IMG/VR virus record: IMGVR_UViG_3300002161_000007
Span: 55,021 to 75,020 of that record
Source of the DNA: an uncultured virus (IMG/VR IMGVR_UViG_3300002161_000007)
Taxonomy: Duplodnaviria > Heunggongvirae > Uroviricota > Caudoviricetes
Reading direction: 5' to 3' (one strand)
Length of the DNA: 20,000 bases
Position numbers and translations under genes: made by a program. Under the pieces are notes generated by a model. That model had not been told where the DNA came from and did not search any database. It saw nothing but the letters and a program-made list of their open reading frames with translations. Of this stretch, positions 2,288 to 20,000 are shown in pieces (the first letter of the stretch is position 1; each line of letters opens with the position of its first letter).

Positions 2288-2534
2288 AATGGATTTTGAC
2301 TCGTGGCTTAAAATAGGTTTAGAGAATAAATGGGTTGGTCCCCCAGTGTGCTCAACACATGATGGGCTACCTTCAACCGAGGACGAAGACTCGGCATGGG
2401 ACGAGGGCGAAGATCCTTGCATTCACATTTTGCGTCTTTATGTAGATGACCTTGAAGCACTGCTCGTAGAGCAGAACCACAGCCCGTCAGTATGGCGTAA
2501 GGCTGGCTGGGAAGACTTACCAAAAGACGAATGA
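2280..2534 (+). CDS. Hypothetical phage protein (84 aa; start revised to MSEMDF)
   Basis: ATG at 2280 overlaps the previous stop; CSTHDG...DPCIH motif; ATGA overlap with the next gene. Confidence 0.75.
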   Translation: MSEMDFDSWLKIGLENKWVGPPVCSTHDGLPSTEDEDSAWDEGEDPCIHILRLYVDDLEALLVEQNHSPSVWRKAGWEDLPKDE

Positions 2535-5362: not shown

Positions 5363-5779
5363 TTGCCTCAGTTCGCAGAGGATTGGCGTAAGCAAGCACT
5401 CTGTAAAGACCGACACATTGATCTTTGGTACCCACCATTAGACACAGACGTACCAGAGAATTACTACACGATCTCTAGAGCCGTATGCAGACAATGTCCT
5501 GTATGGAAAGACTGCTTAGATGATGGCGTAGAAGAGAAATGGGGGTTGTGGGGCGGACTCACACCGCAAGAGCGAACAGCGCTTACTGTTGAACATCCGA
5601 AAGCAAGTGTACTTCGTGCACATGGTACATGGATGCGTTACAGACAAGGCTGTAGATGCACAGAGTGTGCAGACGCTGAGTCAAAAGAGATTAATGAAAT
5701 AAACATTCTAGAGATTCCTAAGATGGGTACGGAACTGAATAATTTAGAGATGCTTAAGTTTCGGTTGATTCAGCCTTAA
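5363..5779 (+). CDS. whiB: WhiB-family Fe-S transcription factor with C-terminal HGT-GCRC-CxxC extension
   Basis: W...ALC...CRQCPVWKDC...WGLWGGLTPQER; TTG start immediately after the previous stop. Confidence 0.9.
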   Translation: MPQFAEDWRKQALCKDRHIDLWYPPLDTDVPENYYTISRAVCRQCPVWKDCLDDGVEEKWGLWGGLTPQERTALTVEHPKASVLRAHGTWMRYRQGCRCTECADAESKEINEINILEIPKMGTELNNLEMLKFRLIQP

Positions 5780-7812: not shown

Positions 7813-8154
7813 ATTCAGGCGATCAACCTTTTCAAGAGACTGCATATCTCTGCCACCCCATACGCCCCAGCGGATGTCGTTCTTGACGGCATAGCGTAGG
7901 CATTGGAATGAAACAGGACAGCCTTGGCATATCTCAATGGCTTGCTTTCTTTTTAATCGTATTTCTTTGTTATGCCCTACTAATCCAGTAGCAAAGAAAG
8001 TAGTTGTGTCTTCATGTCGGCATGACGCATATTTGCGCCATGTACCTACTTCGGGGAACGGTAAAGGATCCATGATCTCTTTGTTAATGATTGTAGGTAC
8101 ATGAAGCGGGGGATTTGACTCCCCCGCATCGTTGTAGTAATCCCAGCGGTTCAT
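7789..8154 (-). CDS. whiB: Second WhiB-family transcription factor
   Basis: W...ASC...FF...AIEICQGCPVSFQCLRYA...WGVWGG; ATGA overlap with the upstream gene (true start could be later). Confidence 0.88.
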   Translation of the reverse strand: MNRWDYYNDAGESNPPLHVPTIINKEIMDPLPFPEVGTWRKYASCRHEDTTTFFATGLVGHNKEIRLKRKQAIEICQGCPVSFQCLRYAVKNDIRWGVWGGRDMQSLEKVDRLNLGKIFNK

Positions 8155-9173
8155 ACGAGGACTACATCCTCCAAGATCCGAATGACCTGACGGTCAAACT
8201 CATCGGTCTTGCCGTTGAGTGCATTCATTGCGTTGCGCTCAACACGGCTGTCGTCCTTGCCACTCATGTGGTGTTGGTAGGTGTTGAATGCTTGCAACAC
8301 TCCGAGACCAGTTCCCATCCATGGAGCGACTCGTGGGTCGTTCTTGTAGAGGTGACGGATCGCTTCCTGCTTGTTCTGTGAGCGACTGATCGCTTGTGGG
8401 CGAGCCTCACCTTCGGTACCAACAGGCACGAGACGATCCACGATGGCGTCCCACTCGGACTGGGTCACAGTGATTGACGAGAGGCGCTCAATCTCAAGCG
8501 ACACCTCATCAGCCATGCTGTGAATGATTCCGAGAGCGTCACGGATGTCTTGAATGCGTCCGTTGCTGTACTTGCTGTGACGAGTCTTGAACTCTGATCC
8601 CTGCTCACCGAGCGCTCCAGCGAGCGTGTTGTCGCAGACCACGGCGGTGACGACTCGCTTGAATGTTGTGGCAAGCGTGCCGTTGTGGCTCGTAGTTGCG
8701 AGCAAGTGTGGACGGAACTCAAAGCCCGCCTTGGTGCTGATTGTCTCAGGCATCTCAATGCTGACCCATGCGACACCGCCACTGCGAAGCAAGCCCGCAG
8801 AACCGATCTGCAAGTTGCTGTCATCAATCACGTTTGCCACGGTGCCGAGCAACCACTCCTCGTACTGGTGGATCTGATACGAATCCTTGAAGAGACCAAG
8901 CGTCTCGTAGTTGTCGTCACGAACGATTGCCTTGCGGTCATCCTGTGGGATGTACTTGAAGGTGCCATTGTTAGGCACTTGCACGAACACTGGTGCTTCA
9001 ATTGCCTTCCAGTGGAACAGACGACGCTTGACATCTTCAACAGGGATTGCCTGCTCGTAATGGTTTGGCTCAGTTCCCTGATCGGTTGCCTTGTAGTGCC
9101 ATGCGTTCCCACGCTTGGATGTAAAGCCCACCAATACATTTTGGTTGAGCCACTGGCTGGTTTCTCTTGACAT
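8151..9173 (-). CDS. DUF932 / phage-plasmid LGT_TIGR03299-like protein
   Basis: N-terminal AWH, SAGLLRSGGVAW, LLATTSHNGT, VVCDNTL, RH motifs; AAGGAG SD. Confidence 0.8.
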   Translation of the reverse strand: MSRETSQWLNQNVLVGFTSKRGNAWHYKATDQGTEPNHYEQAIPVEDVKRRLFHWKAIEAPVFVQVPNNGTFKYIPQDDRKAIVRDDNYETLGLFKDSYQIHQYEEWLLGTVANVIDDSNLQIGSAGLLRSGGVAWVSIEMPETISTKAGFEFRPHLLATTSHNGTLATTFKRVVTAVVCDNTLAGALGEQGSEFKTRHSKYSNGRIQDIRDALGIIHSMADEVSLEIERLSSITVTQSEWDAIVDRLVPVGTEGEARPQAISRSQNKQEAIRHLYKNDPRVAPWMGTGLGVLQAFNTYQHHMSGKDDSRVERNAMNALNGKTDEFDRQVIRILEDVVLV

Positions 9174-9224
9174 GATGTTTCTCCTTGTTGTTTGAGTTAT
9201 TTGGTTTGTTGTACCACTGAGATA

Positions 9225-9253
9225 AAACTACCTCCGTGGGACGGGAATTGCAA
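9225..9253 (-). promoter_or_regulatory. SigA-type promoter for the DUF932-whiB pair
   Basis: Minus strand TTGCAA (9253-9248), 17 nt, TAGTTT (9230-9225). Confidence 0.5.
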
Positions 9254-9262
9254 CTTCTGTTC

Positions 9263-9547
9263 TTATTTTGTGGGAAGGTCAATGACCTGCCCGTTTTGGA
9301 TGGTTGACCCGTAGGTCTCTACTAGGTCATTGACGGCGGACTCTATGTTGCCCGAGCAATTGCTCATAGCGATTTCCCACAGGGTCTCACCGTATGACAC
9401 GGTGTGTTGCTTTGTATTGCAGATATATGAATCCATATGCTCCGCAGACTCTTGGATTAAGAAATACACGAACGCTGTCACGAGCATCGCAAGGAACCCG
9501 TAGAACGCCCATGTAATTCTGTAATTGAGTTTTGTGTAGTCCTTCAC
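9263..9547 (-). CDS. Membrane-anchored LysM-domain protein
   Basis: N-terminal TM helix; HTVSYGETLWEIA...IQNGQVIDLP; AAGGAG SD with GTG start. Confidence 0.8.
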   Translation of the reverse strand: MKDYTKLNYRITWAFYGFLAMLVTAFVYFLIQESAEHMDSYICNTKQHTVSYGETLWEIAMSNCSGNIESAVNDLVETYGSTIQNGQVIDLPTK

Positions 9548-9702
9548 ACTTTCTCCTTAAGTTTGATGATTGCGGACAAGATGTCCTCTAATGACTTTGC
9601 TGGTAACACAAGACCTAAGTCGTACTTGAACCATGTAAACGCCATGATTCCCAATTCGTCTTGGATTTGGTTTACTAACTCAACTGTCCTCATGTTGCTC
9701 AT
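9544..9702 (-). CDS. Hypothetical protein (52 aa, absent from the ORF track)
   Basis: MSNMRTVELVNQIQDELG...KEKV; GGAGG SD; 4-nt overlaps at both ends. Confidence 0.7.
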   Translation of the reverse strand: MSNMRTVELVNQIQDELGIMAFTWFKYDLGLVLPAKSLEDILSAIIKLKEKV

Positions 9703-9854
9703 TGCTCTACCTCCTTGATGTCTATGATTTCTATGAATGACCCCAGTGTCAACAGCGCCTCTACGAGACGGATTGCATCGGGAGCATTGGTTGGTTCATC
9801 CAAGTCACAGCGCTTGCGCACTGTGACCTGAAGTGTGAATTCGGTGGTGCTCAT
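9699..9854 (-). CDS. Hypothetical protein (51 aa; start revised to MSTTEF)
   Basis: ATGA overlaps at both ends. Confidence 0.65.
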   Translation of the reverse strand: MSTTEFTLQVTVRKRCDLDEPTNAPDAIRLVEALLTLGSFIEIIDIKEVEQ

Positions 9855-10432
9855 GACAGAGCATTCTTGAGTAGAAGATAATCTCCGCCTTGCTCCATCC
9901 ATTCAATGAGCCTGTTTGGTTCAGGTGTGAGCACCGAGATACCCATGCTAAACACATTGCTCGTTGGATCAGCCACGATGGCGATTGGTATGTCGCCATA
10001 GTCAACTTCACCTGTCAGCAAGCGTTCAGCCCACTGATTGAATATCTGTTTCTTGTCAGCGATTGGGTCACCCCAGCCACCAGTTGTCCAGCCAGCCATG
10101 ATCTCTGTCCAGCCTTCAATGGTGGTCTCGTAGTGACCACGCCAGTCACTTGACTGGATGTACTCACGATTGATCGTGAGGTTGGTGTTGTACAGGTCAT
10201 CGCCGTACTCGTCCATGCGAATGTGGTCTCCGATGTAGTACTTGCGTACTGCACCATCGTGCACAAGTTGCACAGTTGACGAGTGGTTCTGATCGGACTC
10301 GTAGCAACCCCAGCAGAGGTAACCATCGTGTACATTGCTCCAGCCATGGTCACCATCGGTGTCCACGATTTCGCTACATTCACAGCACTCGTCCTTCAGA
10401 AGTTCTTTCACTTCTTGTTGAATTTCATCCAT
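9851..10432 (-). CDS. Acidic hypothetical protein with N-terminal zinc-finger-like CxxC pairs
   Basis: CCEC...CWGC; GGAGG SD; TAATG overlap. Confidence 0.8.
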   Translation of the reverse strand: MDEIQQEVKELLKDECCECSEIVDTDGDHGWSNVHDGYLCWGCYESDQNHSSTVQLVHDGAVRKYYIGDHIRMDEYGDDLYNTNLTINREYIQSSDWRGHYETTIEGWTEIMAGWTTGGWGDPIADKKQIFNQWAERLLTGEVDYGDIPIAIVADPTSNVFSMGISVLTPEPNRLIEWMEQGGDYLLLKNALS

Positions 10433-10635
10433 TACTTTGCCTCCATTACTTTGAGTAACTCGTTGGTTGTTGTGTTCTTCAATTCAATGCGACCCTTTGC
10501 CCACATGTCCTTGGTCTTTGCTTGATCAAGGATGTAGAAGATTGCAGTCATTGTTGCTTCGTTGTCATCCACATCGGTGAATGTGTGTGCCTTCACTTTG
10601 CCTAAGCGCTGTGCGGTTATTTGATAGGTGTTCAT
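10432..10635 (-). CDS. Hypothetical protein (67 aa)
   Basis: AAGGAG SD; coupled overlaps. Confidence 0.75.
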   Translation of the reverse strand: MNTYQITAQRLGKVKAHTFTDVDDNEATMTAIFYILDQAKTKDMWAKGRIELKNTTTNELLKVMEAK

Positions 10636-10844
10636 GCTGTCTCCTTTTTGGTCTTGTTCATTCTTCCGTTAAACCATGCTTCTACTTTGTCCCATTCCCA
10701 AAACAGTCCTGCACTGAGTACAAGACATGGCTCGGGGAATCCGATGTTTCGCATTCTCCATTGGTGCACGATCGTTGAGTGTGCTCGTTGGAGCCTGTCA
10801 GCGATCTCGTTGGCACCAACGATGTTGGCTGTGTCAATCATCAT
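10632..10844 (-). CDS. AlpA-like HTH DNA-binding protein (start revised)
   Basis: IVGANEIADRL...VHQWR....FPEP.......FW; TAATG overlap at 10844. Confidence 0.7.
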   Translation of the reverse strand: MMIDTANIVGANEIADRLQRAHSTIVHQWRMRNIGFPEPCLVLSAGLFWEWDKVEAWFNGRMNKTKKETA

Positions 10845-11140
10845 TAGAAGCCCCATTCCTCTTCGCTGGTGTCAATGAATGAGTCAAGGTGGTGTGCATT
10901 CACCACTGCCCACGCTGGAGCAACTGGCTGACCCCTCCACATGATGCCATCGGGGAGCGTGACATTGGTGTCGTGCTCACCTTCGGTGACCAATTGAATT
11001 GCGACCACACATGGATCAACCATGTTGAGTGGTACTGGTGGATAGTGATTGCTTTGCAGGTGCCATGCGAGCGCCTGTCGTAGTTCAATCATTCCGTCTT
11101 CCACGGCTTCCGCCATGCCTAGTGCGTTGATGCTTCCCAT
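10844..11140 (-). CDS. Hypothetical phage protein (98 aa; start revised to MGSINA)
   Basis: TAATG overlap at 11140; WHLQSNHYPPVP segment. Confidence 0.75.
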   Translation of the reverse strand: MGSINALGMAEAVEDGMIELRQALAWHLQSNHYPPVPLNMVDPCVVAIQLVTEGEHDTNVTLPDGIMWRGQPVAPAWAVVNAHHLDSFIDTSEEEWGF

Positions 11141-11274
11141 TACTTTGCCTTCCTTCTGTCTCTGAACATGTCTACTGCCCGTGTTAATACGATCCCCCAA
11201 CCGATCCCAATTACAAAAAACACAAAGCAATCAATTGCGTAACCGCTTATGTGAATGGTGAATCCGTTATCCAT
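11140..11274 (-). CDS. Small single-pass membrane protein (44 aa, absent from the ORF track)
   Basis: MDNGFTIHISGYAIDCFVFFVIGIGWGIVLTRAVDMFRDRRKAK; AGGAGG SD; TM segment plus basic tail. Confidence 0.7.
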   Translation of the reverse strand: MDNGFTIHISGYAIDCFVFFVIGIGWGIVLTRAVDMFRDRRKAK

Positions 11275-11282
11275 GTGCCCTC

Positions 11283-11489
11283 CTAAAGGCTCTTTGTTTG
11301 AATGTTGTTTGCTTTGCGGTACTCATCGCACGCATGTGCGAAGAATGCTTTGATGTCAGCCACTGAGGCTTCAGTCTTCAACTTCTGCATGTCGGGATAC
11401 ATCTCTGTGTCCCAGCAGAAGTTGTGTACTTGCTCGGCTTCCATGTCGGTAATGCCGAGCATCATGACCATCATGTCTCGGAGCCTCAT
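11283..11489 (-). CDS. Hypothetical protein (68 aa; start revised to MRLRDM)
   Basis: GGAG SD; ATGA overlap. Confidence 0.7.
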   Translation of the reverse strand: MRLRDMMVMMLGITDMEAEQVHNFCWDTEMYPDMQKLKTEASVADIKAFFAHACDEYRKANNIQTKSL

Positions 11490-11731
11490 ACTGCATCTCC
11501 GAGCCATAGACGGTCTTCATCGTCAACCCGAACGGTACGACCGTCCAGTGTCTGCACTTCTTCCACTACCCAGTCCAATGACGCTTGACCTGAGAGCAGT
11601 TGCTTAGTCAATGCATCCACAACATCTTCTATGTTGAGGTCTCCCGCAAGCAATGTTGCAGGGTCACTTGCATTGACTCCCTCTAGATACACGCCCGTTT
11701 GGAGCGAGATACTTACATTCCATTTATTCAT
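11486..11731 (-). CDS. Hypothetical protein (81 aa), first gene of a cassette
   Basis: Preceded by the SD hairpin at 11733-11750. Confidence 0.8.
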   Translation of the reverse strand: MNKWNVSISLQTGVYLEGVNASDPATLLAGDLNIEDVVDALTKQLLSGQASLDWVVEEVQTLDGRTVRVDDEDRLWLGDAV

Positions 11732-11853
11732 GATGACCTCCTCAGATCATTGTTGTTGACAGGTGTTACAAGGTTGCTTCACCCCGTGAGCACTTCCCAA
11801 GGCGGATCAAGGGAAGTGCTCACGGGGTGACACCAGCCGAGGCTGATGTCACC
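11732..11853 (-). repeat. Cassette leader, type B variant (20-bp perfect inverted repeat plus SD hairpin)
   Basis: TCACCCCGTGAGCACTTCCC/GGGAAGTGCTCACGGGGTGA at 11779-11830; hairpin 11826-11853; ATGATCT-GAGG-AGGTCAT. Confidence 0.8.
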
Positions 11854-11868
11854 TTTCGTACGAGCCTC

Positions 11869-12120
11869 TCAGGACTCGTTTAACGATGTTTCAATCCAAT
11901 CTAAGTCAATGTTGTACAGATATACGACATGACCCTCAGGTGCATAGAACTTGATGTAAGCGCCCGAGTCGTCATCTTCAAACTGCTCATTGACACTGCC
12001 GATGTACTTCATCTTGGACAGTTGTTCTTGCCCGTAGTACTCATTGGTATTGACAGAGGGGATCAAGAGATTCGCCTCCACCAAGTCCCTGCGCACTACT
12101 GGGTAACCACCGAGGATCAT
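11869..12120 (-). CDS. Hypothetical protein (83 aa; start revised to MILGGY)
   Basis: GGAGG SD; ATGA overlap. Confidence 0.75.
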   Translation of the reverse strand: MILGGYPVVRRDLVEANLLIPSVNTNEYYGQEQLSKMKYIGSVNEQFEDDDSGAYIKFYAPEGHVVYLYNIDLDWIETSLNES

Positions 12121-12317
12121 TGCTCGCCTCCACAACGGCAGTTGCCATTGCATGGTGCGAATTGAGTTTGCCGACTGTCCCAGCCGTTCTCAGCACACTT
12201 GACGCACCTCCACACATTCAGAGGTAAGTCAGGCGCTGGACGGAAGTCATGGTGACACAGGATCACCGCTGTTGGAGTCTCTCCCGTGCGATTGAAATAT
12301 TCCATGACGCTCTGCAT
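12117..12317 (-). CDS. Cys-rich small protein
   Basis: CHH...CVKC...CNGNCRC; TGATG overlap. Confidence 0.7.
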   Translation of the reverse strand: MQSVMEYFNRTGETPTAVILCHHDFRPAPDLPLNVWRCVKCAENGWDSRQTQFAPCNGNCRCGGEQ

Positions 12318-12526
12318 CAGAACACATCCACTGCGATGATCTTTGAGAGTGCGATGTCAATCTCACGCTCGTTCTCGTAGGTGTCGTATGGGCTGTCGCT
12401 AGTCCACATTGACAACTCGGTGTCGCTGATTCGTGAGACGATTCCTGAGTAGTCAAATGTCTCTATCGGAGAGATCTGCACGGATACTTCTACTTCGTCT
12501 CCTACTGCCACATTGATTGTTTTCAT
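12317..12526 (-). CDS. Hypothetical protein (69 aa)
   Basis: AAGGAGG SD; ATGA overlap. Confidence 0.75.
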   Translation of the reverse strand: MKTINVAVGDEVEVSVQISPIETFDYSGIVSRISDTELSMWTSDSPYDTYENEREIDIALSKIIAVDVF

Positions 12527-12882
12527 TTGTTGCCTCCTTCAAGGTCTAACACTGTTTCGTACATGTCTTCGTTGCTGATTACTTGAATTTCGTACTTGGT
12601 GTTGAAGTCATCGTCCCACTGGTTCTCAGTTATGAAATAACCGATGCGGTTAACGATGTGTCGTCCAGCGATGATGTATGTGCCTTCCTCGCCGTCCACA
12701 TATGTCCATGTGTAATGCAATGGCTGATCAAACACATGGTCAACTTCGGCACCGTATGTTTCAAACATGATGCCGTTGCCATCATCGTCTGACCACGATG
12801 CGTTGTCATCTAGGTGATTGTTGACAGGCTTGAACTTTGCCTCCCATTCTTCAACAGACATTTTGATTACTGGTTGTATCAT
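12523..12882 (-). CDS. Hypothetical phage protein (119 aa), first gene of a cassette
   Basis: FKPVNNH...MFETYG...WT...G.HIVNRIGYFITE; SD hairpin upstream. Confidence 0.8.
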   Translation of the reverse strand: MIQPVIKMSVEEWEAKFKPVNNHLDDNASWSDDDGNGIMFETYGAEVDHVFDQPLHYTWTYVDGEEGTYIIAGRHIVNRIGYFITENQWDDDFNTKYEIQVISNEDMYETVLDLEGGNK

Positions 12883-12992
12883 CTGACCTCCTCAGGTCTT
12901 TAGGGATTAACTAATTTATCGGGTACTAGGTACCCTCACAACACACAAACAGAATTTATGTGCTGTGAGAGCACCACGAGCCGAAGCCCGTG
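12883..12992 (-). repeat. Cassette leader, type B
   Basis: CACGGGC-TTCG-GCTCGTG; long stem 12929-12975; GGGTAC-CTA-GTACCC; GACCT-GAGG-AGGTC. Confidence 0.85.
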
Positions 12993-13001
12993 ATGCCCCG
13001 A

Positions 13002-13259
13002 TCAGGCAACATCCTCCCACCATGTCTGTGGCATGTAGAAGTATCCGCCTTCGTGCCAGCCGAATGAGTGACCGTCAGTAGCGACTTGGTCATTCAGCCA
13101 TTCCGTGGCTACCTGTTCTTGGTACCACGAGTCCTCAATGTCGGTGGGCTGGCGCCCATCCCACCCAAGTTCTCGTGCAATCCTGCACGCTTCCATGGCG
13201 CTGTACACGCCATGGTGGTCGTCAACTAACAACCCAGTGCCGATCATGACCTTGCTCAT
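13002..13259 (-). CDS. Hypothetical protein (85 aa)
   Basis: GGAGGT SD; ATGA overlap. Confidence 0.75.
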   Translation of the reverse strand: MSKVMIGTGLLVDDHHGVYSAMEACRIARELGWDGRQPTDIEDSWYQEQVATEWLNDQVATDGHSFGWHEGGYFYMPQTWWEDVA

Positions 13260-13543
13260 TGCTCTACCTCCATGTCAGCGAGCACGAATGGGATCTTGTA
13301 GTCAATGTCGTACGACAAGACATTGAAGTCTTCGCCGTTGTTGCCTACGAGTGACTTGAGTTCCTCTTCTCCGCCTTCGCAGTAGAAGAAGACCTCATCG
13401 TCTCGGTTGCCCAGCGAGTCGTACTCGCCGTTCCACTCGTTCTCATTCCATGTGCCAAACGAGATGTACACCTCGCTTTCGTCCTGCGTGTCCTTCCACT
13501 GGATGATTGCCCATGCACCAATTGGTGTTCCGATATTGCTCAT
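13256..13543 (-). CDS. Acidic hypothetical protein (95 aa; start revised to MSNIGT)
   Basis: AAGGAG SD; TAATG overlap. Confidence 0.75.
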   Translation of the reverse strand: MSNIGTPIGAWAIIQWKDTQDESEVYISFGTWNENEWNGEYDSLGNRDDEVFFYCEGGEEELKSLVGNNGEDFNVLSYDIDYKIPFVLADMEVEQ

Positions 13544-13782
13544 TAGAACTCTCCTTGTTCTGTGATGTCGTAATTGAGGTATGTCCACACATCTTGGTTG
13601 ACGCTGTCGTAACCACCGTTGGCGTCAAACACTTCAACAGCCCTGAGCCATTCTTCTGAATCTGCCGACAATGTTTCATCATTGTCACCAATGGTGAACA
13701 GGTTTGCTTCCCACCAAGAGATAGCGATCTCTTCGTCAGGATTGATCTCACTCAATAATTTAATTGCGTGACTTACTTTCAT
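13543..13782 (-). CDS. Acidic hypothetical protein (79 aa), first gene of a cassette
   Basis: SD hairpin upstream. Confidence 0.8.
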   Translation of the reverse strand: MKVSHAIKLLSEINPDEEIAISWWEANLFTIGDNDETLSADSEEWLRAVEVFDANGGYDSVNQDVWTYLNYDITEQGEF

Positions 13783-13865
13783 GGTGCCTCCTCAGGCTTT
13801 GTTTACTTCGGCGGTATTGCCTTGTCCCCAGTCGGAATTGAATCCGCACGCCTGTAGCGCTGGGG
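13783..13865 (-). repeat. Cassette leader, type A (tRNA-like core 13826-13865)
   Basis: CCCCAG-CGC-TACAG-GCG-TG-CGGA-TTCAAT-TCCG-A-CTGGGG-AC; GCCT-GAGG-AGGC. Confidence 0.9.
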
Positions 13866-13872
13866 GATCTCT

Positions 13873-14088
13873 CTAGAAGCCGTTCTTGTCACAGATCTTG
13901 CTGAGAGCGCCAATGACCTTGTCCTCTACAGCGAGATACTGCTCAAGAGAACCCCATGGATAGATGCCATCGTCACCGAGTCGGTTGTGAATCGCTTCCA
14001 TGCCGTCTCGCACCAACTGGTACAGGATGTCCAGTTCGGATCCACGGCGATCAATGCCTCCGTTGAGAGTGATATTTAAGTTGTACAT
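13873..14088 (-). CDS. Hypothetical protein (71 aa), single-gene cassette
   Basis: Flanked by leaders on both sides. Confidence 0.8.
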   Translation of the reverse strand: MYNLNITLNGGIDRRGSELDILYQLVRDGMEAIHNRLGDDGIYPWGSLEQYLAVEDKVIGALSKICDKNGF

Positions 14089-14188
14089 GGTGACCTCCTC
14101 AGGTCTTGAATGAACATCGGGTGATGTTCTGACAGTACATCAACGGTGTGTCAATGTACTGTCAGAACACCACGGGCTTGCGCCCGTG
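14089..14188 (-). repeat. Cassette leader, type B
   Basis: CACGGGC-GCAA-GCCCGTG; long stem GTTCTGACAGTACAT/ATGTACTGTCAGAAC; GAACATC-ACCC-GATGTTC; GACCT-GAGG-AGGTC. Confidence 0.85.
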
Positions 14189-14272
14189 ATGAACTGTGGT
14201 GGCTCCCGTGAGGACAAGAGTGCACCGATTGTCGCTTGTAACGCTGACCATGAAGCGCTACAGCGCCCACGA

Positions 14273-15796
14273 TTATCCGTTACCAACGATCCCGTCAATG
14301 AGGGCTTGCGTAATGCTTCCACCCTCTGCACCCATGTCTTCACCGTGACCTGTCAAGACAGCCGATACCGTCTCGTGCTTGGCGTTGAGTAGTGCCCACA
14401 TGCGATCGTCCACTGTTGGGATCTCGCTTGTGTCATCTACAGCCAACAACCACCACGCAACGACTGCGTTGTCTTGACCGATGCGGTGTGCACGGTCTTC
14501 TGATTGCACTGCTTCCGCTGGTGTCCATGGCACTTCAGCGAACACCACATGCGATGATGCGGTCAATGTAAGACCGACACCAGCACTTGTGAATTGTCCG
14601 ATGAACACCTTGGCGTCACCTTGTTGGAATGCGTCAACTGCTTCCTGCTTCTGCTCATCGGTAAGACCGCCAGCCACCTTGACTACGCCGTGCTTGTTAA
14701 GAGCACTGGCTAAGCCTGCGATGACATCTCGGTGATGTGCGAACACGATGACCTTCTCGCCTTGAGCGACAAGTTCTTCTACATGCTCAACCACATACGG
14801 GATCTTGGCGATACCGAGCAACTTGCGCAGTGCGTTGAGGCGAGTGATCACCTCAGCCTTGGATGCCTTCTGCCATGCCTCGGCACCGCCATTGGCGATG
14901 ACGAAGTCACGGAAGTCATTCTCGGCGTGACGGTATGTAGCGAGATCATCTTCTGTGATCTCTACCGCCACTTGAGCACGGCGCTTCGCTGGGAGTTCCT
15001 TCAACACATCTGACTTGTTACGCCTCACATAGCAGATGCCACGCAATTTGTCGTTCAACTCAGTGGTGTTGCTGGCTCCGTTGTACACATAACCCCATCC
15101 ATTGTGGATTGGATCACAGTAACGAAACAGGAATGCGTTGCGTCCACCGAACCCTCTGTCCAGTCTGTCAATGATTGACAGCGGAGCAACGAGTTCGCTT
15201 GGACGATTCACGATGATGGTGCCACTGAGCAATACCACATACCCCTCAGTCGGAATTGACTTGGCGATGTATGCAATACCCTTAGTGCGACCTGACTTCG
15301 CATTCTTCGCACGGTGTGCCTCATCAACGATGAGCGCTCCAAACTTGCCAGCCAACTTGAGTGACCACAGGTCAACATTGCTGTCACCAATGATCACCAC
15401 ATCAGCCTTAGGTATGGCACCGACACGACTGCCCTTCACCACGGCTACAGAGAGCCACGGTGCGAACTGCTTGAATGAGCGAACCCAGTTGGTGCGCAAT
15501 GACGGAGGCACCACGACAAGCACCTTGTGCTTCTCATTGACAGCCTGCACAGCCACTGCGATGCCCTGCGGAGTCTTGCCCAGCCCCATCTCGTCACCGA
15601 TGATGACACGGCGTTGCTTGATTGCATACGCCACGCCAGCACGCTGGAACGGGAAGAGAGGTTGAGCGAGATCTACAGCGACCTCACCATCGTGAGCGCT
15701 ACTAAGAGCAAGGAGTGATGGGTCAGCAGTGATTGCTGGCGCAACACGATCAAGCCCCGATAGCAATGCACTCAGTCCTTCTAGTTGTGTATTCAT
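14273..15796 (-). CDS. SNF2-family (SMARCAL1/HARP-like) helicase/ATPase
   Basis: FQ, DEMGLGKT, VVVPP, DEAH, SGT, GVGLTLT, QSEDRAHRIGQ. Confidence 0.93.
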   Translation of the reverse strand: MNTQLEGLSALLSGLDRVAPAITADPSLLALSSAHDGEVAVDLAQPLFPFQRAGVAYAIKQRRVIIGDEMGLGKTPQGIAVAVQAVNEKHKVLVVVPPSLRTNWVRSFKQFAPWLSVAVVKGSRVGAIPKADVVIIGDSNVDLWSLKLAGKFGALIVDEAHRAKNAKSGRTKGIAYIAKSIPTEGYVVLLSGTIIVNRPSELVAPLSIIDRLDRGFGGRNAFLFRYCDPIHNGWGYVYNGASNTTELNDKLRGICYVRRNKSDVLKELPAKRRAQVAVEITEDDLATYRHAENDFRDFVIANGGAEAWQKASKAEVITRLNALRKLLGIAKIPYVVEHVEELVAQGEKVIVFAHHRDVIAGLASALNKHGVVKVAGGLTDEQKQEAVDAFQQGDAKVFIGQFTSAGVGLTLTASSHVVFAEVPWTPAEAVQSEDRAHRIGQDNAVVAWWLLAVDDTSEIPTVDDRMWALLNAKHETVSAVLTGHGEDMGAEGGSITQALIDGIVGNG

Positions 15797-15893
15797 GGTC
15801 TGTTTACCTCCTCAGGTAATTGTTAGTGGACTTGCGTCCTCACAACACATCAGTTGCCCGATGTGCTGTGAGGGCGCCACACCTTGCGGTGTG
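15797..15893 (-). repeat. Cassette leader, type B
   Basis: CACACC-GCAA-GGTGTG; long stem 15834-15877; GGAC-GCAA-GTCC; TTACCT-GAGG-AGGTAA. Confidence 0.85.
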
Positions 15894-15904
15894 ACATCCT
15901 CGGG

Positions 15905-16630
15905 CTAGAAGCCCAATCGCTTTGCGCAGTCGTTGCCGATGCCACGCTTGCGTGTGACCTCATCGGTCAAGTGACGCCCGCACACACCACACCGCCCGAT
16001 CTCTTGACCGTACAGTGCCTGTGCATCCATGCGTTCTTGATCGCTGAGCGCAAGTAGACGCTTCACAGCGTTCACTGCACGCTCACCGTGTAGTCGCTCG
16101 TCACGATGACCACCCACGACCATGTAGATCGCACGCTGACCCTTGAGGCTTGCGTTATGCACGCCCTTGTTGGTCTTCACTGCGTAGAACACGAGATCGT
16201 TGGCGCCAGTTGATGACAGTGCGTAGAACCCATCGGCAAGTGTGCCGAAGAGTTCGTTGGTCACCGTCACTGGACGAGCAACAGGCTCCGATGAGCATTC
16301 ACCAGCCTTGTGGAATGTCTGCCACTTGCCACTGATGAGCAATGCGTGACCAGCACCGACAGGTACAGGATGCCCGCACAATGTGCACGGGTTCGCATAC
16401 TTGTTGACGATGGTGCGCTCTGCCTTAGGCAAGTGGTCAGTGCCCACACGCTTGACCTCAATCTTCTTGATTGCGTCAATGGCGAACGATGCTGACTTGC
16501 TGGACAACTCATTCAACTTCTGATCAATGATGTACTGGTCAACACCAGCCTCATCAAGACCGAGTGTTGAAGCACGCTCTAAGAGCATCGTGCGAATGAA
16601 TGCCTGTTGCTTTGGTGTTATTGCACCCAT
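15905..16630 (-). CDS. DUF6011-like zinc-finger protein
   Basis: ITPKQ..FI N-terminus; NKYANPCTLCG...H...C; C-terminal CGVCGRHLTD......GIGNDC. Confidence 0.75.
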   Translation of the reverse strand: MGAITPKQQAFIRTMLLERASTLGLDEAGVDQYIIDQKLNELSSKSASFAIDAIKKIEVKRVGTDHLPKAERTIVNKYANPCTLCGHPVPVGAGHALLISGKWQTFHKAGECSSEPVARPVTVTNELFGTLADGFYALSSTGANDLVFYAVKTNKGVHNASLKGQRAIYMVVGGHRDERLHGERAVNAVKRLLALSDQERMDAQALYGQEIGRCGVCGRHLTDEVTRKRGIGNDCAKRLGF

Positions 16631-16738
16631 GGTAAGAACCTCCTCAGATTCTGTTTTGTTGTACTGAATGGACTTGCGTCCTCGGAATGCACCGATGGGG
16701 GATCAGTGCACTCCGAGCACGCCATGGCTTGCGCCATG
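16631..16738 (-). repeat. Cassette leader, type B
   Basis: CATGGC-GCAA-GCCATG; long stem 16676-16722; GGAC-GCAA-GTCC; AGAATCT-GAGG-AGGTTCT. Confidence 0.85.
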
Positions 16739-16757
16739 ACTGCCCACTGCTACTTAC

Positions 16758-17012
16758 TCACGCATTGGCGAGTTGGGAAGTGAGTTCTGCGATTGCCTTC
16801 CATAACACTGTGTCAATGTCAGCGGTGTCACTGATAAAGAGCGTGATCGTGGACTCCAGTTTTGCGTAACCGAATGACTCTTTGTCCTGCTCCCACTGGG
16901 GACGGCTGAACGCCAAGTCTTCGTACTCAATCACGAGATCAATCGTGTGAAGTCGTGAGTCACCAGTTTTCTCAATCCGAAACCCAGTTACTTTGTGAAT
17001 AGTTGCATCCAT
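16758..17012 (-). CDS. Hypothetical protein (84 aa; start revised to MDATIH)
   Basis: ATG directly follows the SD hairpin; the ORF-track extension runs through the leader. Confidence 0.8.
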   Translation of the reverse strand: MDATIHKVTGFRIEKTGDSRLHTIDLVIEYEDLAFSRPQWEQDKESFGYAKLESTITLFISDTADIDTVLWKAIAELTSQLANA

Positions 17013-17115
17013 GGTTGACCTCCTCGGGTCTGTTAGTTGAACGGGCAATTGTATGCCCTCACAATGCACCGACACAACGCCGATGCACTGTGAGGGCACC
17101 ACGGGCGAACCCGTG
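17013..17115 (-). repeat. Cassette leader, type B
   Basis: CACGGG-TTCG-CCCGTG; long stem 17054-17098; GGGCA-TACAAT-TGCCC; GACCC-GAGG-AGGTC. Confidence 0.85.
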
Positions 17116-17125
17116 ATGCTCCCGA

Positions 17126-17344
17126 TCACGCACTGTGATCAACTGAGTGGTCGTACCCCTCGGGGTACCACGCATCACCGCATGTCGCACAGGTGTATCC
17201 ATCGGGGTATCCGATGTCGTACGCCTCAGCGAACTCCAGTGTCTCACCTTCACGAAGTGACTCGGCTTGGTAGTAGTCGGCGCACACAAGGCACACCAAC
17301 GCACCATCGTCCATCACTTTGCCAATTACGACTGGGCTAGTCAT
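17126..17344 (-). CDS. Small zinc-finger protein (72 aa; start revised to MTSPVV)
   Basis: CLVC...CATC; GAGGA SD; 8-nt overlap with the upstream gene. Confidence 0.75.
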   Translation of the reverse strand: MTSPVVIGKVMDDGALVCLVCADYYQAESLREGETLEFAEAYDIGYPDGYTCATCGDAWYPEGYDHSVDHSA

Positions 17345-17657
17345 TGTCCTCGTCCTCCTCCACATAGCCTGCTGGCATTGTGATGGATGGGAAGTAGACA
17401 ACGGCTTCATCACGACCCATGCTGTCTTGACGCACATCGTAAAGAAGTGCCCTTGTCAGGGCTTGACCTTTACTGCCCAAGTCAGCGAGTGCCGATCCGA
17501 GGATCAAGAATGTTGATGCCACATCTTCGGTCACAATGCCGAGGCATTGAGCGCCATACATCGCACGACCCGAGTACTCCATTACGGAACCCGCTTCATA
17601 CATGTCCAGTGTGTCAGTGATCTGTTCTAGATCCCAGTCGGTCAGTTGATAACTCAT
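17337..17657 (-). CDS. Hypothetical phage protein (106 aa), first gene of a cassette
   Basis: YSGRAMYG..CLGIV...RQDSMG....VYFP; SD hairpin upstream. Confidence 0.8.
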   Translation of the reverse strand: MSYQLTDWDLEQITDTLDMYEAGSVMEYSGRAMYGAQCLGIVTEDVASTFLILGSALADLGSKGQALTRALLYDVRQDSMGRDEAVVYFPSITMPAGYVEEDEDND

Positions 17658-17742
17658 GGCTATACCTCCTCAGGTATTTTGTAGTGAGCGGTTGCTCACA
17701 GTCCCCAGTACCGATTGAACGGTCACGCCTAAAGCGCTGGGG
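17658..17742 (-). repeat. Cassette leader, type A (core 17703-17742)
   Basis: CCCCAG-CGC-TTTAG-GCG-TG-ACCG-TTCAAT-CGGT-A-CTGGGG-AC; ATACCT-GAGG-AGGTAT. Confidence 0.9.
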
Positions 17743-17749
17743 GAATTGG

Positions 17750-18040
17750 TTAGTAAGAACCCCAATTTTCTTCATCGGTGACGATGTCTCGCACGACATC
17801 AGGACTGATACCGCACTTGATCAAGAATGCGCTGTTTTCTTCTGCCGTTCGGCAGTCAACGATTACAGCGTCATCCATGCCGAGTTGATCCGCAAGTGAT
17901 TGCCACAGCATCCACAGAGCGATATGTGCACGCTCATGGTGCATCACCCGCCAGACTCCGAGACTTCTTGGTGACATGGAATCAAAGTGCGCATGCCTGC
18001 GAATTGCTTTTGCAATTGTGTCTTCTATTCCGAATTTCAT
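17750..18040 (-). CDS. Hypothetical protein (96 aa), single-gene cassette
   Basis: Flanked by leaders on both sides. Confidence 0.8.
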   Translation of the reverse strand: MKFGIEDTIAKAIRRHAHFDSMSPRSLGVWRVMHHERAHIALWMLWQSLADQLGMDDAVIVDCRTAEENSAFLIKCGISPDVVRDIVTDEENWGSY

Positions 18041-18130
18041 GGCTATACCTCCTCAGGTATTTGTATTCACGACACTGGCGTGTCGCTAGTCCCTAGTCCG
18101 AATTGAATCGGCACGCCCAAGGCGCTAGGG
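18041..18130 (-). repeat. Cassette leader, type A (core 18091-18130)
   Basis: CCCTAG-CGCC-TTG-GGCG-TG-CCGA-TTCAAT-TCGG-A-CTAGGG-AC; ATACCT-GAGG-AGGTAT. Confidence 0.9.
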
Positions 18131-18140
18131 GAACGCTCAC

Positions 18141-18521
18141 TCACCCGTAGACGATGTCACCGAGCACTGCGTACTGCATGATGTTGTCAGCACCGCATGC
18201 GTCAAGGTCTTCGTGGTTGATATCCCAACCACGGGACACGAGCGCACCGTACGCCATGGCGATGTCATTCATTGACAACTTGGCGCTTTTGATGCTGGCT
18301 GGTGCTGGGAAGGTGTCCCGATCGTAACGATCAGGGTTCTCAACACCCACCAAGATGAACTTCTCACTCGGGTCAGTTGGAAGATTGTCATCGCTGTAGC
18401 CGTTCAGGTATCCGAACGCCTCCCACCAAGACCATCCCAACCACCCCGAACCGAGAACTGCGGACATGAACTCTTCCGCATCCAGTCGGACGGTGACTGT
18501 AAGTGTTGTTGCTGTTTTCAT
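18141..18521 (-). CDS. Hypothetical phage protein (126 aa; start revised to MKTATT)
   Basis: ATG follows the SD hairpin; C-terminal DLDA..AD.IMQYAVLGDIVYG. Confidence 0.8.
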   Translation of the reverse strand: MKTATTLTVTVRLDAEEFMSAVLGSGWLGWSWWEAFGYLNGYSDDNLPTDPSEKFILVGVENPDRYDRDTFPAPASIKSAKLSMNDIAMAYGALVSRGWDINHEDLDACGADNIMQYAVLGDIVYG

Positions 18522-18603
18522 GGTTGACCTCCTCAGGTCGCTTACTTCGGCGGGAATGCCTTGTCCCGTGTTGCGATTGAACGCCACACCTAAAGTGCAC
18601 GGG
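18522..18603 (-). repeat. Cassette leader, type A (core 18565-18603)
   Basis: CCCGTG-CAC-TTTAG-GTG-TG-GCG-TTCAAT-CGC-AA-CACGGG-AC; GACCT-GAGG-AGGTC. Confidence 0.9.
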
Positions 18604-18616
18604 GGAGTCGCTCACA

Positions 18617-19156
18617 TCACACAAGTGATGTGATCTTCTCACTGATTAATTGCAGAGTCTCAATGCGAAGAGTCATGAGGTCATCGTTGAGTTTGTTCCA
18701 CTCGGCATCGGTAACCGTTGGGCTACTGATGTGTCGGATGATGCCATTGACTGCCTGTTGCTTGGAGCCAGCACGCTCAATCTTTTCTTGGTGGTAAGCC
18801 TTCGCCTCGGCATCCTGTTGAGCGACCCATTCTTGAATGGTGGTCGCTTCCCAGTGAGCCATGTGAGACTGGATCTCTCGTGCTGACACCTTGCGAGTTG
18901 CCAAGCCGTACACAGGCTCTCGGTTGTCATTGGCACCCTCACTGCGCAAGTAACCACGGAAATATGTGTGGTGAGTCACAGCGAATACGAACTCAATGCG
19001 AGTGCCTGTCCGCCTGTAGTTGTCGTACACGGGAACCTCACGCTCAATCACTTCCGTGATTGATCCGTAACTCGTGCCACGACCGAAGCGTTGCTTGATC
19101 ACGAATATTGCATTCGGATCCTTGGCAATGATCTGCTTGATGTCTGATGTTTTCAT
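18617..19156 (-). CDS. Hypothetical protein (179 aa), single-gene cassette
   Basis: Flanked by leaders on both sides. Confidence 0.8.
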   Translation of the reverse strand: MKTSDIKQIIAKDPNAIFVIKQRFGRGTSYGSITEVIEREVPVYDNYRRTGTRIEFVFAVTHHTYFRGYLRSEGANDNREPVYGLATRKVSAREIQSHMAHWEATTIQEWVAQQDAEAKAYHQEKIERAGSKQQAVNGIIRHISSPTVTDAEWNKLNDDLMTLRIETLQLISEKITSLV

Positions 19157-19244
19157 GGTTGACCTCCTCNGGTCTTATNNTCACGACACTGGCGTGTCGC
19201 TAGTCCCCAGTCCCGATTGAACGGGCACGCCCTAGGCGCTGGGG
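19157..19244 (-). repeat. Cassette leader, type A (core 19205-19244)
   Basis: CCCCAG-CGCC-TAG-GGCG-TG-CCCG-TTCAAT-CGGG-A-CTGGGG-AC; GACCN-GAGG-AGGTC. Confidence 0.9.
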
Positions 19245-19268
19245 GATACTCACTCACTCAGTTTCTGA

Positions 19269-19589
19269 TCACTCACGCTCAATGCTTGCGATGTGCTTCA
19301 AGATCTCACGCTTGGCTTTACGCAATGTGTAAAGTTCCGTGAACTCTTTGCTGAAGTCATTCAACTTCTGCGTGGCGAACGGAAGGCTCCAATTGATCCT
19401 CCAATCGGCGTCTTCGTTGGTCGCATCAATCGTGACTGGCTCCAGTTGGGTGAGCAGTTCGGCAAAGAACTTGGCGTAATCGGAGACAATTCCGATGTAG
19501 TTAAGCGACCGAAGTCTGTCCTCCATCTGTTTGATCTGCCAGTCAAGAAACATAAGTGCTACTTGATCAGGTGTTGATGTGCTGTCCAT
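19269..19589 (-). CDS. Helical hypothetical protein (106 aa), single-gene cassette
   Basis: Flanked by leaders on both sides. Confidence 0.8.
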   Translation of the reverse strand: MDSTSTPDQVALMFLDWQIKQMEDRLRSLNYIGIVSDYAKFFAELLTQLEPVTIDATNEDADWRINWSLPFATQKLNDFSKEFTELYTLRKAKREILKHIASIERE

Positions 19590-19672
19590 GGTTGACCTCC
19601 TCAGGTCGTTGTAGTGAGCGGTCGCTCACAGTCCCCAGTGCTCATTGAAGAGCCACGACCTAGTCGCTGGGG
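19590..19672 (-). repeat. Cassette leader, type A (core 19633-19672)
   Basis: CCCCAG-CGAC-TAG-GTCG-TG-GCTC-TTCAAT-GAGC-A-CTGGGG-AC; GACCT-GAGG-AGGTC. Confidence 0.9.
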
Positions 19673-19691
19673 GAATGCGTTGCGGGATTAC

Positions 19692-19904
19692 TTAACGCAC
19701 TTTGTACTTGACGCAACTTGGGCACAAGGCTCGCTGTGCCCTTGTGGTTGATGACGGCACGAATCTCCAGTTGCCTGTGAATGGATTCTTGCGGGTCATG
19801 TCCTCTATCAACGATGTCACCGTTGTGTAGGTGTGGACTCCAGTTGCTTTGCACCCGTTGCAATGTGCTCGGTATGCATTACTTCCGTGTTCCCTCTTAA
19901 TCAT
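19692..19904 (-). CDS. Small zinc-finger protein (70 aa), single-gene cassette
   Basis: CNGC...CPSC; flanked by leaders. Confidence 0.8.
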   Translation of the reverse strand: MIKREHGSNAYRAHCNGCKATGVHTYTTVTSLIEDMTRKNPFTGNWRFVPSSTTRAQRALCPSCVKYKVR

Positions 19905-19989
19905 GGTGTGCCTCCTCAGGCATATTCACGGAGCGTTCGCTCCGCTAGTCCCCAGTGCGAATTGAATCGCCACGGCTGAACCGCTGGGG
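19905..19989 (-). repeat. Cassette leader, type A (core 19950-19989)
   Basis: CCCCAG-CGG-TTCAG-CCG-TG-GCGA-TTCAAT-TCGC-A-CTGGGG-AC; TGCCT-GAGG-AGGCA. Confidence 0.9.
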
Positions 19990-20000
19990 GGAAGAACTCA

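Follow-up and report, generated by a model that had tools for sequence, protein, structure and literature searches.

In phage T7, RNase III sites between the early genes cut the polycistronic message into stable units that carry hairpins on their ends. Plant mitochondrial t-elements are described by Forner et al. 2007 (PMC1920247) as tRNA-like folds in or between mRNAs, with borders that are mRNA ends and with cutting by RNase P and/or RNase Z proposed; they belong to an organelle and have a canonical T-arm, GGTTCRANYCC with a 7-base loop, in a near-cloverleaf of about 74 nt. Among T4-type phages, the PeSLs presented by Arbiol et al. 2010 (PMC2839356) are repeated intergenic cassettes among small accessory genes, each consisting of a sigma-70 promoter and a terminator stem-loop. 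In the Cluster K mycobacteriophages, the account of Pope et al. 2011 (PMC3203893) places two repeats in the non-structural arm only, in one orientation and at gene starts: SAS, which spans 13 bp, includes an SD and sits 3-7 bp from the start codon, and ESAS, a 17-bp inverted repeat.

The window analysed here is a 20,000-nt stretch of an uncultured virus (positions 55,021 to 75,020 of IMG/VR record IMGVR_UViG_3300002161_000007), and it contains a 40-nt motif that can be set beside these systems. Like the T7 sites, the motif is a structured element between early genes; however, RNase III sites need a long double-stranded hairpin of roughly two helical turns, and identity with them was rejected because the longest helix of the motif is 6 bp. 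Long-hairpin modules of the same operon, here called type B, resemble the T7 sites more than the motif does. With the t-elements it has a T-loop-type sequence in common, but it is a phage element of 40 nt with a 6-base loop, and GGTTCRANYCC occurs in just 2 of 66 distinct cores. It resembles SAS/ESAS in its placement, and the SD hairpin that follows it is SAS-like, whereas the motif itself forms a three-way junction and keeps close to the stop codon upstream. As with PeSLs, it appears as a joint for modular shuffling, at gene ends with changing neighbours and modules; it has neither of the two PeSL components. Type II hammerheads (RF02276) share its three-stem topology and, in related phages, its intercistronic niche. 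The conserved bases of the motif, in contrast, lie in a hairpin loop and its flanks and not in the junction. Hammerhead identity was rejected, with the core elements CUGANGA and GAAA absent from the alignment and the Rfam hammerhead models matching neighbouring gaps of relatives and never the motif.

Seven copies on the sense strand of a gene block

A first-pass annotation had reported seven copies of the motif in the window, and all were found, at the plus-strand coordinates given below; all seven read on the minus strand, the one that is sense for the leftward gene block 13256-19904. As the order P1-P2-UG-P3-UUCAAU-P3'-A-P1'-AC is read on the minus strand, the trailing AC lies 2 nt below the start of each core. 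In transcript order, copy 1, the most upstream, lies at 19948..19990 (core 19950-19989; 66.4 bits), 11 nt from the contig end, which cuts its gap (19905-20000) and adjoins a repeat. Copy 2 occupies 19631..19673 (core 19633-19672) in gap 19590-19691 (69.0 bits), and copy 3 occupies 19203..19245 (core 19205-19244) in gap 19157-19268, with N at 19171 and 19180-19181 of the gap sequence (72.9 bits). At 18563..18604, in gap 18522-18616, copy 4 has a 39-nt core (18565-18603; 49.3 bits) of a class, termed b and seen again in relatives, with a 3-bp P3 followed by AA; when its whole gap was folded, an alternative structure beat the motif fold. Copy 5, at 18089..18131 (core 18091-18130; gap 18041-18140; 72.1 bits), has the P1 CCCUAG/CUAGGG. 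Copy 6 (17701..17743) comprises the core 17703-17742 with C(-1) and AC and lies in gap 17658-17749 (69.8 bits); its whole-gap fold recovered the motif, the second hairpin and the SD hairpin. Copy 7, at 13824..13866, likewise consists of C(-1), the 40-nt junction 13826-13865 and AC; it scores 65.0 bits, folds alone into three stems and lies in gap 13783-13872, between ORF 13873-14088 and ORF 13543-13782. The lengths reported earlier, 40 nt in six copies and 39 nt in one, and the reported stem sequences proved correct.

The downstream half of the gap of copy 6, 17658..17700 on the minus strand, exemplifies what follows a junction: a variable second hairpin (GUGAGC..GCUCAC), then an SD hairpin (AUACCU-GAGG-AGGUAU) and the ATG at 17657. 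This arrangement recurs in the other six gaps. With up to one mismatch allowed, SD sequences of the CCTGAGGAGG type number 16 on the minus strand of the genome vs 3 on the plus strand. With filters off, a covariance-model search across all 75,020 bp of the genome returned only these seven copies, at 49.3-72.9 bits and E-values of 9e-11 to 5e-17; the next-best score was 10.6 bits, and the seven-copy match is far beyond chance.

The fold and its covariation

The element is a compact three-way junction, in which P1 has 6 bp, P2 is better taken as 4 bp (last pair Y-G) with a triloop, a refinement of the earlier description, and P3 has 3-4 bp under a UUCRAU loop. Beside P3 stand a conserved U, G and A, from which a further U-A pair can form, leaving the G bulged or mismatched. 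An invariant unpaired A-C follows the junction, and then come the variable second hairpin, the SD-bearing hairpin and the next start codon. P1 reads CCCCAG in five of the copies in the window, CCCUAG in one and CCCGUG in one, and P3 differs in all seven. When each copy was folded alone, the three stems were the minimum-energy structure in every case, identical in six of seven; the 39-nt copy had a slightly different P2.

The covariation noted at first reading persisted in an expanded alignment of 51 sequences, where 99.4% of stem cells are paired and 8 of 14 pairs are changed on both sides, a level reached by none of 500 shuffles; RNAalifold independently yielded the same fold. Among 54 distinct cores there are 12 types of P1, 11 of P2 and 16 of P3. 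Their stem cells include 33 G-U and no A-C combinations, which identifies the folding strand as the sense strand. These results confirm that the 40-nt element is a genuine covarying, strand-specific RNA fold inside a polycistronic message. We infer that the stem differences between copies favour local folding of each copy and lessen recombination between copies.

About a dozen unpaired bases are invariant. The loop has six bases in all 54 cores, UUCAAU in 53 and UUCGAU in one, a count drawn from a scan that demanded TTCRAT; a covariance-model search free of this demand added a single, weak loop variant (20.2 bits). The pair closing the loop varies (A-U, G-C, C-G). In the flanks of 105 distinct variants, A(+1) is present in 103 and C(+2) in 104, an invariance partly imposed by the scan pattern that collected the relatives; among 20 copies found by the model only, AC is present in 18.

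Distribution and genomic context

The fold was found in 54 IMG/VR viral contigs and many metagenome contigs, giving 66 distinct cores, and it occurs in phages of 39, 75 and 97 kb; copy number is one to seven per genome. In all 84 distinct contexts a same-strand ORF upstream stops 4-25 nt before P1 (median 7.5), and in 80 of the 84 an SD and start codon follow 13-58 nt past P1'. The 39-kb relative shows the order sigma-70-like promoter, ORF1, motif, ORF2. In the window, no promoter- or terminator-like site lies at any copy, and positions 12000-20000 hold 4 and 5 such sites vs 5.6 and 6.3 expected. Rfam gave no gathering-score match in the window, and at the motif itself it had no match when E-values as high as 10 were allowed; the motif is in no catalogue, being neither an Rfam family nor a tRNA by ARAGORN. 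Non-exhaustive keyword searches of the literature turned up no description of it.

A pattern scan of 185,579 prokaryote species genomes found no true copy; for copies of this pattern an origin as a host repeat or prophage element was rejected, the four matches all being chance ones in which 6-10 of 14 pairs form. A megablast search of 50,697 phage records gave no match to a cultured relative, and the helicase is only 31-36% identical to those of Arthrobacter, Thermus and other phages. The phage encodes two WhiB genes and an Rpf-like transglycosylase domain, which point to an actinobacterial host and hence to its set of RNases. It also encodes a RecA-like recombinase; searches of 118 ORF translations with Pfam and 77 with PHROGs found no integrase or tyrosine recombinase and no RNA-binding, RNase or RNA-ligase domain. 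Three sequencing runs contained 6-11% of the sampled words, judged from contigs only, and two of these are probably DNA; the sole true metatranscriptome contributed two short contigs, both inside the helicase gene, with no cover at the motif. Taken tentatively, the motif may well be a phage-specific, cis-acting structured RNA that punctuates the polycistronic early message.

Several other identities were tried and rejected. A promoter, including one of the N4 DNA-hairpin type, was rejected because the phage encodes no giant virion RNA polymerase, nor any RNA polymerase (the largest ORF has 902 aa), and no consensus lies at the motif; an intrinsic terminator was rejected because no U tract follows. 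A riboswitch was set aside, as the motif lacks an expression platform and occurs in series of up to seven copies. Complementarity of the loop to 16S rRNA was weighed and dropped, being taken for a chance 6-mer. Integron attC identity failed with no integrase in the translations searched, and PeSL identity with no strong sigma-70-like promoter plus terminator stem-loop at any copy.

Hammerheads and other modules in the same niche

Rfam Hammerhead_II scored over threshold in two related loci (L004 and L058), in the gap preceding the motif gap and on the same strand. A full-core descriptor recovered four distinct type II hammerheads in seven of the related loci, all 0-3 nt past a stop codon and 20-30 nt ahead of an SD and ATG. 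The motif in locus L016 and a hammerhead in locus L003 stand behind orthologous gene ends (97.5% identity over 40 residues). The 48-nt hammerheads went unreported by Rfam at E up to 0.1 in five loci, and a 251-nt search gave just a weak Hammerhead_3 match (17.9 bits), so that they rest on our own descriptor. The same operons contain a sister family, which keeps the architecture and changes the loop to RUCRUA, and type B modules, apparently plain long hairpins, which in the window lie at 14089-14272, 15797-15904, 16631-16757 and 17013-17125. The presence of these hairpins indicates that the niche does not require self-cleavage.

Discussion

Because complete type II hammerheads occupy the same niche, we read the motif as an RNA module at which the message is cut and its new ends are protected, an explanation that we favour with reserve. 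A hammerhead cut puts a hairpin on each new end, the layout proposed for the motif; the common niche is a shared place and not proof of a shared mechanism. A host endoribonuclease would cut within the short single-stranded A-C linker, the junction would stay as a 3' cap shielding the upstream cistron from 3' exonucleases, and the second hairpin would serve the downstream cistron as a 5' cap, making every small early gene its own stable, separately translated unit. The cutter could be RNase E, whose actinobacterial form cuts between a purine and a C, or else RNase Z, which might recognise the stack of P1 and P3 as an acceptor/T-arm minihelix. Mycobacterial RNase E is described as cutting immediately 5' of C at 88% of mapped sites, with a weak purine preference before the cut; it acts where the RNA is single-stranded, and the enrichment of its sites is greatest between the genes of polycistrons (PMC10641625). 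The invariant A-C after P1' would suit an actinobacterial RNase E site and a discriminator base equally. Against this cut-and-protect reading, a plain RNase E site would not call for an elaborate junction with an invariant loop, and each ribosome terminating 4-25 nt away would melt the cap. The first-pass proposal that the polycistron is cut draws real support from the hammerheads in the same intercistronic niche of relatives, one of them behind an orthologous gene end, while the cleavage step is one that we infer.

That proposal had taken the form of a mini-tRNA, in which P1, P3 and the UUCRA loop copy an acceptor/T-arm minihelix and a stable RNA of about 41 nt is freed by RNase P, acting 5' of P1, and RNase Z, acting behind the A. 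Such a strict mimic is unlikely. The UUCRA signature of the T-loop is there in the cores collected, and the acceptor-like features observed are a 6-bp P1, a linker of 1-2 nt to P3 and an unpaired A after P1' in 103 of 105 variants; by our reading P1 and P3 with the U-A pair stack about 11 layers, or 12 with C(-1)/A(+1), as against 12 in tRNA. The t-elements, for which cleavage by RNase P and RNase Z at the ends of mRNAs is described (PMC1920247), and the niche held in common with hammerheads also speak for it. The likeness to a T-loop nevertheless stops at the signature, since the loop has six bases rather than seven, its closing pair varies and a canonical T-arm is rare; ARAGORN found no tRNA gene in the window, and Rfam no likeness at the motif. 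After the A come C and then N, never CCA, position -1 is C and not U, and P2 joins P1 with no linker, favouring a P1/P2 stack. The sister family carries RUCRUA on the same architecture, and cleavage by RNase P would give the upstream cistron a bare 3' tail. The mini-tRNA as first worded is not supported. It is quite unlikely that the junction itself is catalytic, as a new class of small self-cleaving ribozyme interchangeable with hammerheads, or is a mini-tRNA, excised from the early message in up to seven copies, that would act in trans to decoy a host factor recognising the tRNA elbow.

A new small self-cleaving ribozyme, whose junction with its invariant loop and flanks would cut itself as the neighbouring hammerheads do, is very unlikely indeed, in spite of a position interchangeable with hammerheads (once behind the same gene), a hammerhead-like topology of two hairpins on an open stem and the dozen or so invariant unpaired bases. 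Weinberg et al. 2015 were reportedly led to new ribozyme classes by association with known ribozymes, a precedent that we counted in its favour. However, the junction offers just three unpaired bases from which a catalytic core could be built, no Rfam ribozyme family resembles the motif, the loop is changed in the sister family and type B hairpins share the niche. A site for a phage or host protein through which the neighbouring genes are controlled in their translation or decay, or a fold that stays uncut and stops exonucleases, is very unlikely too: protein operators typically show such an invariant loop and bulged G on stems that vary freely, one to seven copies per genome would fit, and SAS/ESAS are likewise proposed as possible binding sites (PMC3203893), but the translations searched hold no RNA-binding, RNase or RNA-ligase domain, the motif occurs across phages of 39, 75 and 97 kb, and at 13-58 nt it is too distant to occlude the start codon. 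At the level of DNA, the motif might be a cassette-recombination repeat, PeSL-like or similar to a single-stranded attC, with its RNA fold incidental. One upstream gene end is found with differing motif variants and differing downstream genes, the joins in contigs from relatives, 17700 with 18563 and 17746 with 18038, fall at the edges of copies 17703-17742 and 18565-18603, orthologous gene ends bear different modules, assemblies break at the repeat, and the phage has its RecA-like recombinase. We nevertheless hold this to be highly improbable, as homologous recombination needs neither compensatory changes nor an invariant loop, the excess of G-U over A-C and an orientation that is strictly sense are what an RNA would show, the translations searched contain no integrase or tyrosine recombinase, the promoter and terminator of PeSLs are missing, and the niche is held in common with hammerheads, which are active only as RNA. 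The swapping of cassettes is probably just a by-product of the repeats.

In uncultured phages that infect freshwater actinobacteria, the early genes appear to be arranged as swappable single-gene units, with a few interchangeable RNA modules between them: the three-way junction, its sister junction, long hairpins and minimal hammerheads. This would be a concrete case of mRNA punctuation in a bacterial virus and could account for the long-unexplained start-associated repeats of actinophages. Should the motif turn out to be a ribozyme, or a tRNA-like decoy that is released, it would represent a new class of RNA. Read as a module that cuts the message and protects its ends, it would provide compact parts of 40-48 nt for insulating genes in synthetic actinobacterial operons.

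A covarying RNA fold between genes

Each of the seven copies of the 40-nt motif reported in the first-pass annotation was found in its place when the coordinates were re-checked, and the description given there, a three-way junction of stems P1, P2 and P3 (P1-P2-UG-P3-UUCAAU loop-P3'-A-P1'-AC, primes marking 3' strands), holds when read on the minus strand, the sense strand of the leftward genes. In the sense direction the gap runs from the stop codon through 7-24 nt, a C, the 40-nt fold and A-C to a variable second hairpin, a hairpin whose GAGG loop and 3' strand are occupied by the Shine-Dalgarno sequence (SD), and the ATG. The three stems are the minimum-energy structure of every copy folded alone, and whole-gap folding recovered them in four of five gaps. 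The motif covariance model R1, run on the whole genome with filters off, gave exactly seven matches (49-73 bits), the next best scoring 10.6 bits. The SD of most leftward genes lies in a small covarying hairpin, NACCU-GAGG-AGGUN, on the minus strand (e.g. 17658-17680, 18041-18062 and 19590-19612); allowing at most one mismatch, the genome has 16 copies of CCTGAGGAGG on its minus strand versus three on the plus strand, and this hairpin resembles start-associated sequences of Cluster K mycobacteriophages.

Searching IMG/VR with a pattern of 18 fixed bases, among them the terminal CCC/GGG of P1 as well as UG, the loop, the A and AC, gave 71 loci on 55 contigs, one locus being a chance match. Metagenome contigs yielded 46 distinct matches, of which 36 form 9-10 of the ten unfixed pairs and ten form only 1-7; this division is a clean internal control. 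No true copy fitting the pattern was found in prokaryotes (185,579 species, one genome each), where all four pattern matches were chance. In an alignment of 51 sequences, pairing holds in 99.4% of stem cells and 8 of 14 pairs have changed on both sides; none of 500 shuffled controls matched the observed covariation, sliding the partner lowered pairing to 21-49%, and RNAalifold independently returned the same fold. The 54 distinct motif sequences (cores) from the window and viral loci, which become 66 once metagenome loci are added, comprise 12 P1, 11 P2 and 16 P3 types and contain 33 G-U cells but no A-C cell; therefore, the sense strand is the folding strand. The invariance of the P1 ends, UG, loop, A and AC is partly built in, because the pattern fixed them; twenty further copies, found by the model only, tolerate GCCCUA, GCCUAU or CCCGCA as P1 and a UUCGAU loop, and AC is retained in 18 of them.

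A same-strand ORF stops 4-25 nt before P1 in all 84 distinct contexts (median 7.5; 6-9 nt in 59), and an SD and start codon lie 13-58 nt past P1' in 80 of the 84, so the motif is anchored to where the upstream gene ends and lies between cistrons in every case. None of the copies coincides with a promoter or terminator consensus; in a complete 39-kb relative, a sigma-70-like promoter is followed by the first small ORF and then by the motif. The complete relatives (the 39-kb record and four of 97 kb) carry 1-4 copies each, and the seven of the present phage are the upper end of the range.

Refined anatomy of the motif

P2 consists of four base pairs, C-G first and Y-G last, and a triloop whose first base is U (49 of 54 cores). 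Two length classes were distinguished: in 35 cores P3 has 4 bp and an A comes after it, and in 16 cores it has 3 bp and AA, GA or AG comes after it. In both, the U of 'UG' could pair with the last junction base (A; G in two cores), which would extend P3 to five layers, the G being bulged or mismatched; as these positions are without covariation, we only infer this U-A pair. Of 105 distinct variants, 96 have C at position -1 and 103 have A at +1; C occupies +2 and a purine +4 in 104 variants each.

Other modules in the same niche

The modules that replace the motif in relatives are the most informative result. Rfam Hammerhead_II scored above threshold in loci L004 and L058, on the motif's strand and in the gap immediately upstream of the motif-bearing gap. 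A descriptor that accepts only an entire type II core with all three stems paired detected four distinct hammerhead sequences, spread over seven loci that each lie on a separate contig; by our estimate, chance would give about 0.002 matches. Stems I and III covary among the four, and all seven hammerheads start 0-3 nt past a stop codon and finish 20-30 nt short of an SD and ATG. Three 48-nt forms fall under the Rfam thresholds and are supported by the descriptor alone; these minimal type II hammerheads (L003 1996-2043 (-), L010 2185-2232 (+), L011 1945-1992 (+), L013 3795-3842 (-) and L069 2857-2904 (-)) contain the entire core, have an open stem II of 3 bp and show covariation in stems I and III.

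Equivalent gene ends (97.5% identity over 40 residues) are followed by the motif in L016 and by the hammerhead in L003. At other orthologous gene ends, where one phage has the motif, others have a type B module. Behind the gene upstream of the L004 hammerhead, type B stands in the counterparts L001, L037 and L042; in L004 and L058 a hammerhead replaces type B behind an orthologous gene. Type B modules (window 14089-14272, 15797-15904, 16631-16757 and 17013-17125, all minus strand) consist, in order, of a hairpin with a UUCG/GCAA-type tetraloop, a long, imperfectly paired hairpin (about 15-17 bp), a GCAA hairpin and the SD hairpin; they sit before larger genes (SNF2 helicase, DUF6011 protein) and look like RNase III-type sites.

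More distant relatives have, in the same operons as the motif but in other gaps, a sister three-way junction of 41 nt, built on the motif's architecture, in 11 variants (L005, L010-L013, L020, L031, L032, L043, L055-L057 and L063). It starts with GCCUAG and a triloop hairpin of 4 bp; UA leads into a 5-bp stem capped by an RUCRUA loop, after which come A, CUAGGC and AC. A GNRA hairpin follows in four of four gaps read. Loop bases 1 and 5, U..A in the motif, become G..U or A..U in the sister junction, which suggests that they pair. A further variant lies behind an orthologous gene end (L065 2486-2533 and L053 3130-3177, sense opposite to the model match), with P1 CCCCUAG/CUAGGGG, then AC, and two 4-bp hairpins with five-base loops, UACAG and UCAUG.

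Alternative readings of the motif

The proposal that the motif mimics a tRNA stood in part: the loop carries UUCRA, the stack has about 11-12 layers, and the A after P1' is unpaired. However, neither ARAGORN nor Rfam has a match at the motif, the loop has six bases with a variable closing pair, a canonical T-arm occurs in just 2 of 66 cores, there is no CCA, the base at -1 is C, P2 abuts P1 with no linker, and the loop of the sister junction is RUCRUA. The motif is thus a tRNA mimic only in part, and a strict tRNA-mimic model is unlikely.

Gene-cassette swapping at the motif repeats is real: one gene end can be found beside different neighbours, contigs of relatives contain the junctions 17700/18563 and 17746/18038, at the borders of two copies, and assemblies break at the repeat. 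If recombination alone were at work, neither compensatory changes nor an invariant loop nor the G-U strand bias would be selected, and we therefore regard swapping as a consequence of the repeats. A purely DNA-level role is the least probable of the readings weighed here. That the motif is a protein site or a nuclease block that stays uncut seems improbable, and that it cleaves itself about equally so.

Phage genome and probable host

The window covers the final 20 kb of one record of 75,020 bp, in which terminase, portal, capsid, sheath, tube and baseplate genes indicate a contractile tail. Replication genes encode a family A polymerase, DnaB-, DnaC- and DnaG-like proteins and a RecA-like recombinase; no RNA polymerase or integrase was found by Pfam on 118 ORF translations or PHROGs on 77. 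The leftward block spans window positions ~7789 to 19904. The host is probably an actinobacterium, judging from two WhiB-family genes (5363-5779 (+) and 7789-8154 (-)), from DUF6011 and from an Rpf-type transglycosylase domain; the WhiB pair within one phage genome is the main clue. A DpdA-like queuine tRNA-ribosyltransferase homologue (PHROG 887; 2531-3967 (+)) suggests 7-deazaguanine modification of the phage DNA, and two SNF2-family helicase genes (genome 41715-43274 (+); window 14273-15796 (-)) each match PHROG 62.

The record terminates 11 nt past a motif copy (window 19990-20000), and its opposite end (genome 1-700) holds no continuation of the operon; no terminal repeat was found at these ends. 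It was probably cut at the motif repeat and may lack the promoter-proximal portion of the early operon.

Proposed cutting and capping of the message

Taking into consideration that a self-cutting RNA is interchangeable with the motif in position, we infer that the motif most likely marks a cleavage point in the polycistronic message, the folds capping the new ends. When a type II hammerhead cleaves, the 3' end that it creates carries stem III and the 5' end stem I; a cut in the A-C linker would leave the motif on one end and the second hairpin on the other, a hammerhead-like layout. Host enzymes that would fit the A-C bond are actinobacterial RNase E and RNase Z. One study describes actinobacterial RNase E as cutting single strands immediately 5' of C, with a weak preference for a preceding purine, and its sites as most enriched between genes of polycistrons (PMC10641625). 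RNase Z cuts past the discriminator where an acceptor stem and a T-arm stack, and such cleavage has been proposed for plant t-elements (PMC1920247). The sole true RNA run with sequence of this phage contributes two short contigs, both inside the helicase gene.

The motif matches no Rfam 15 family, and keyword searching of the literature found no published description of it. The RNase III sites of T7 are structured intercistronic processing elements in phage message, and the motif would share this kind of signal with them; structured processing elements are familiar from t-elements too. The type of signal is thus familiar, while the fold itself is new.
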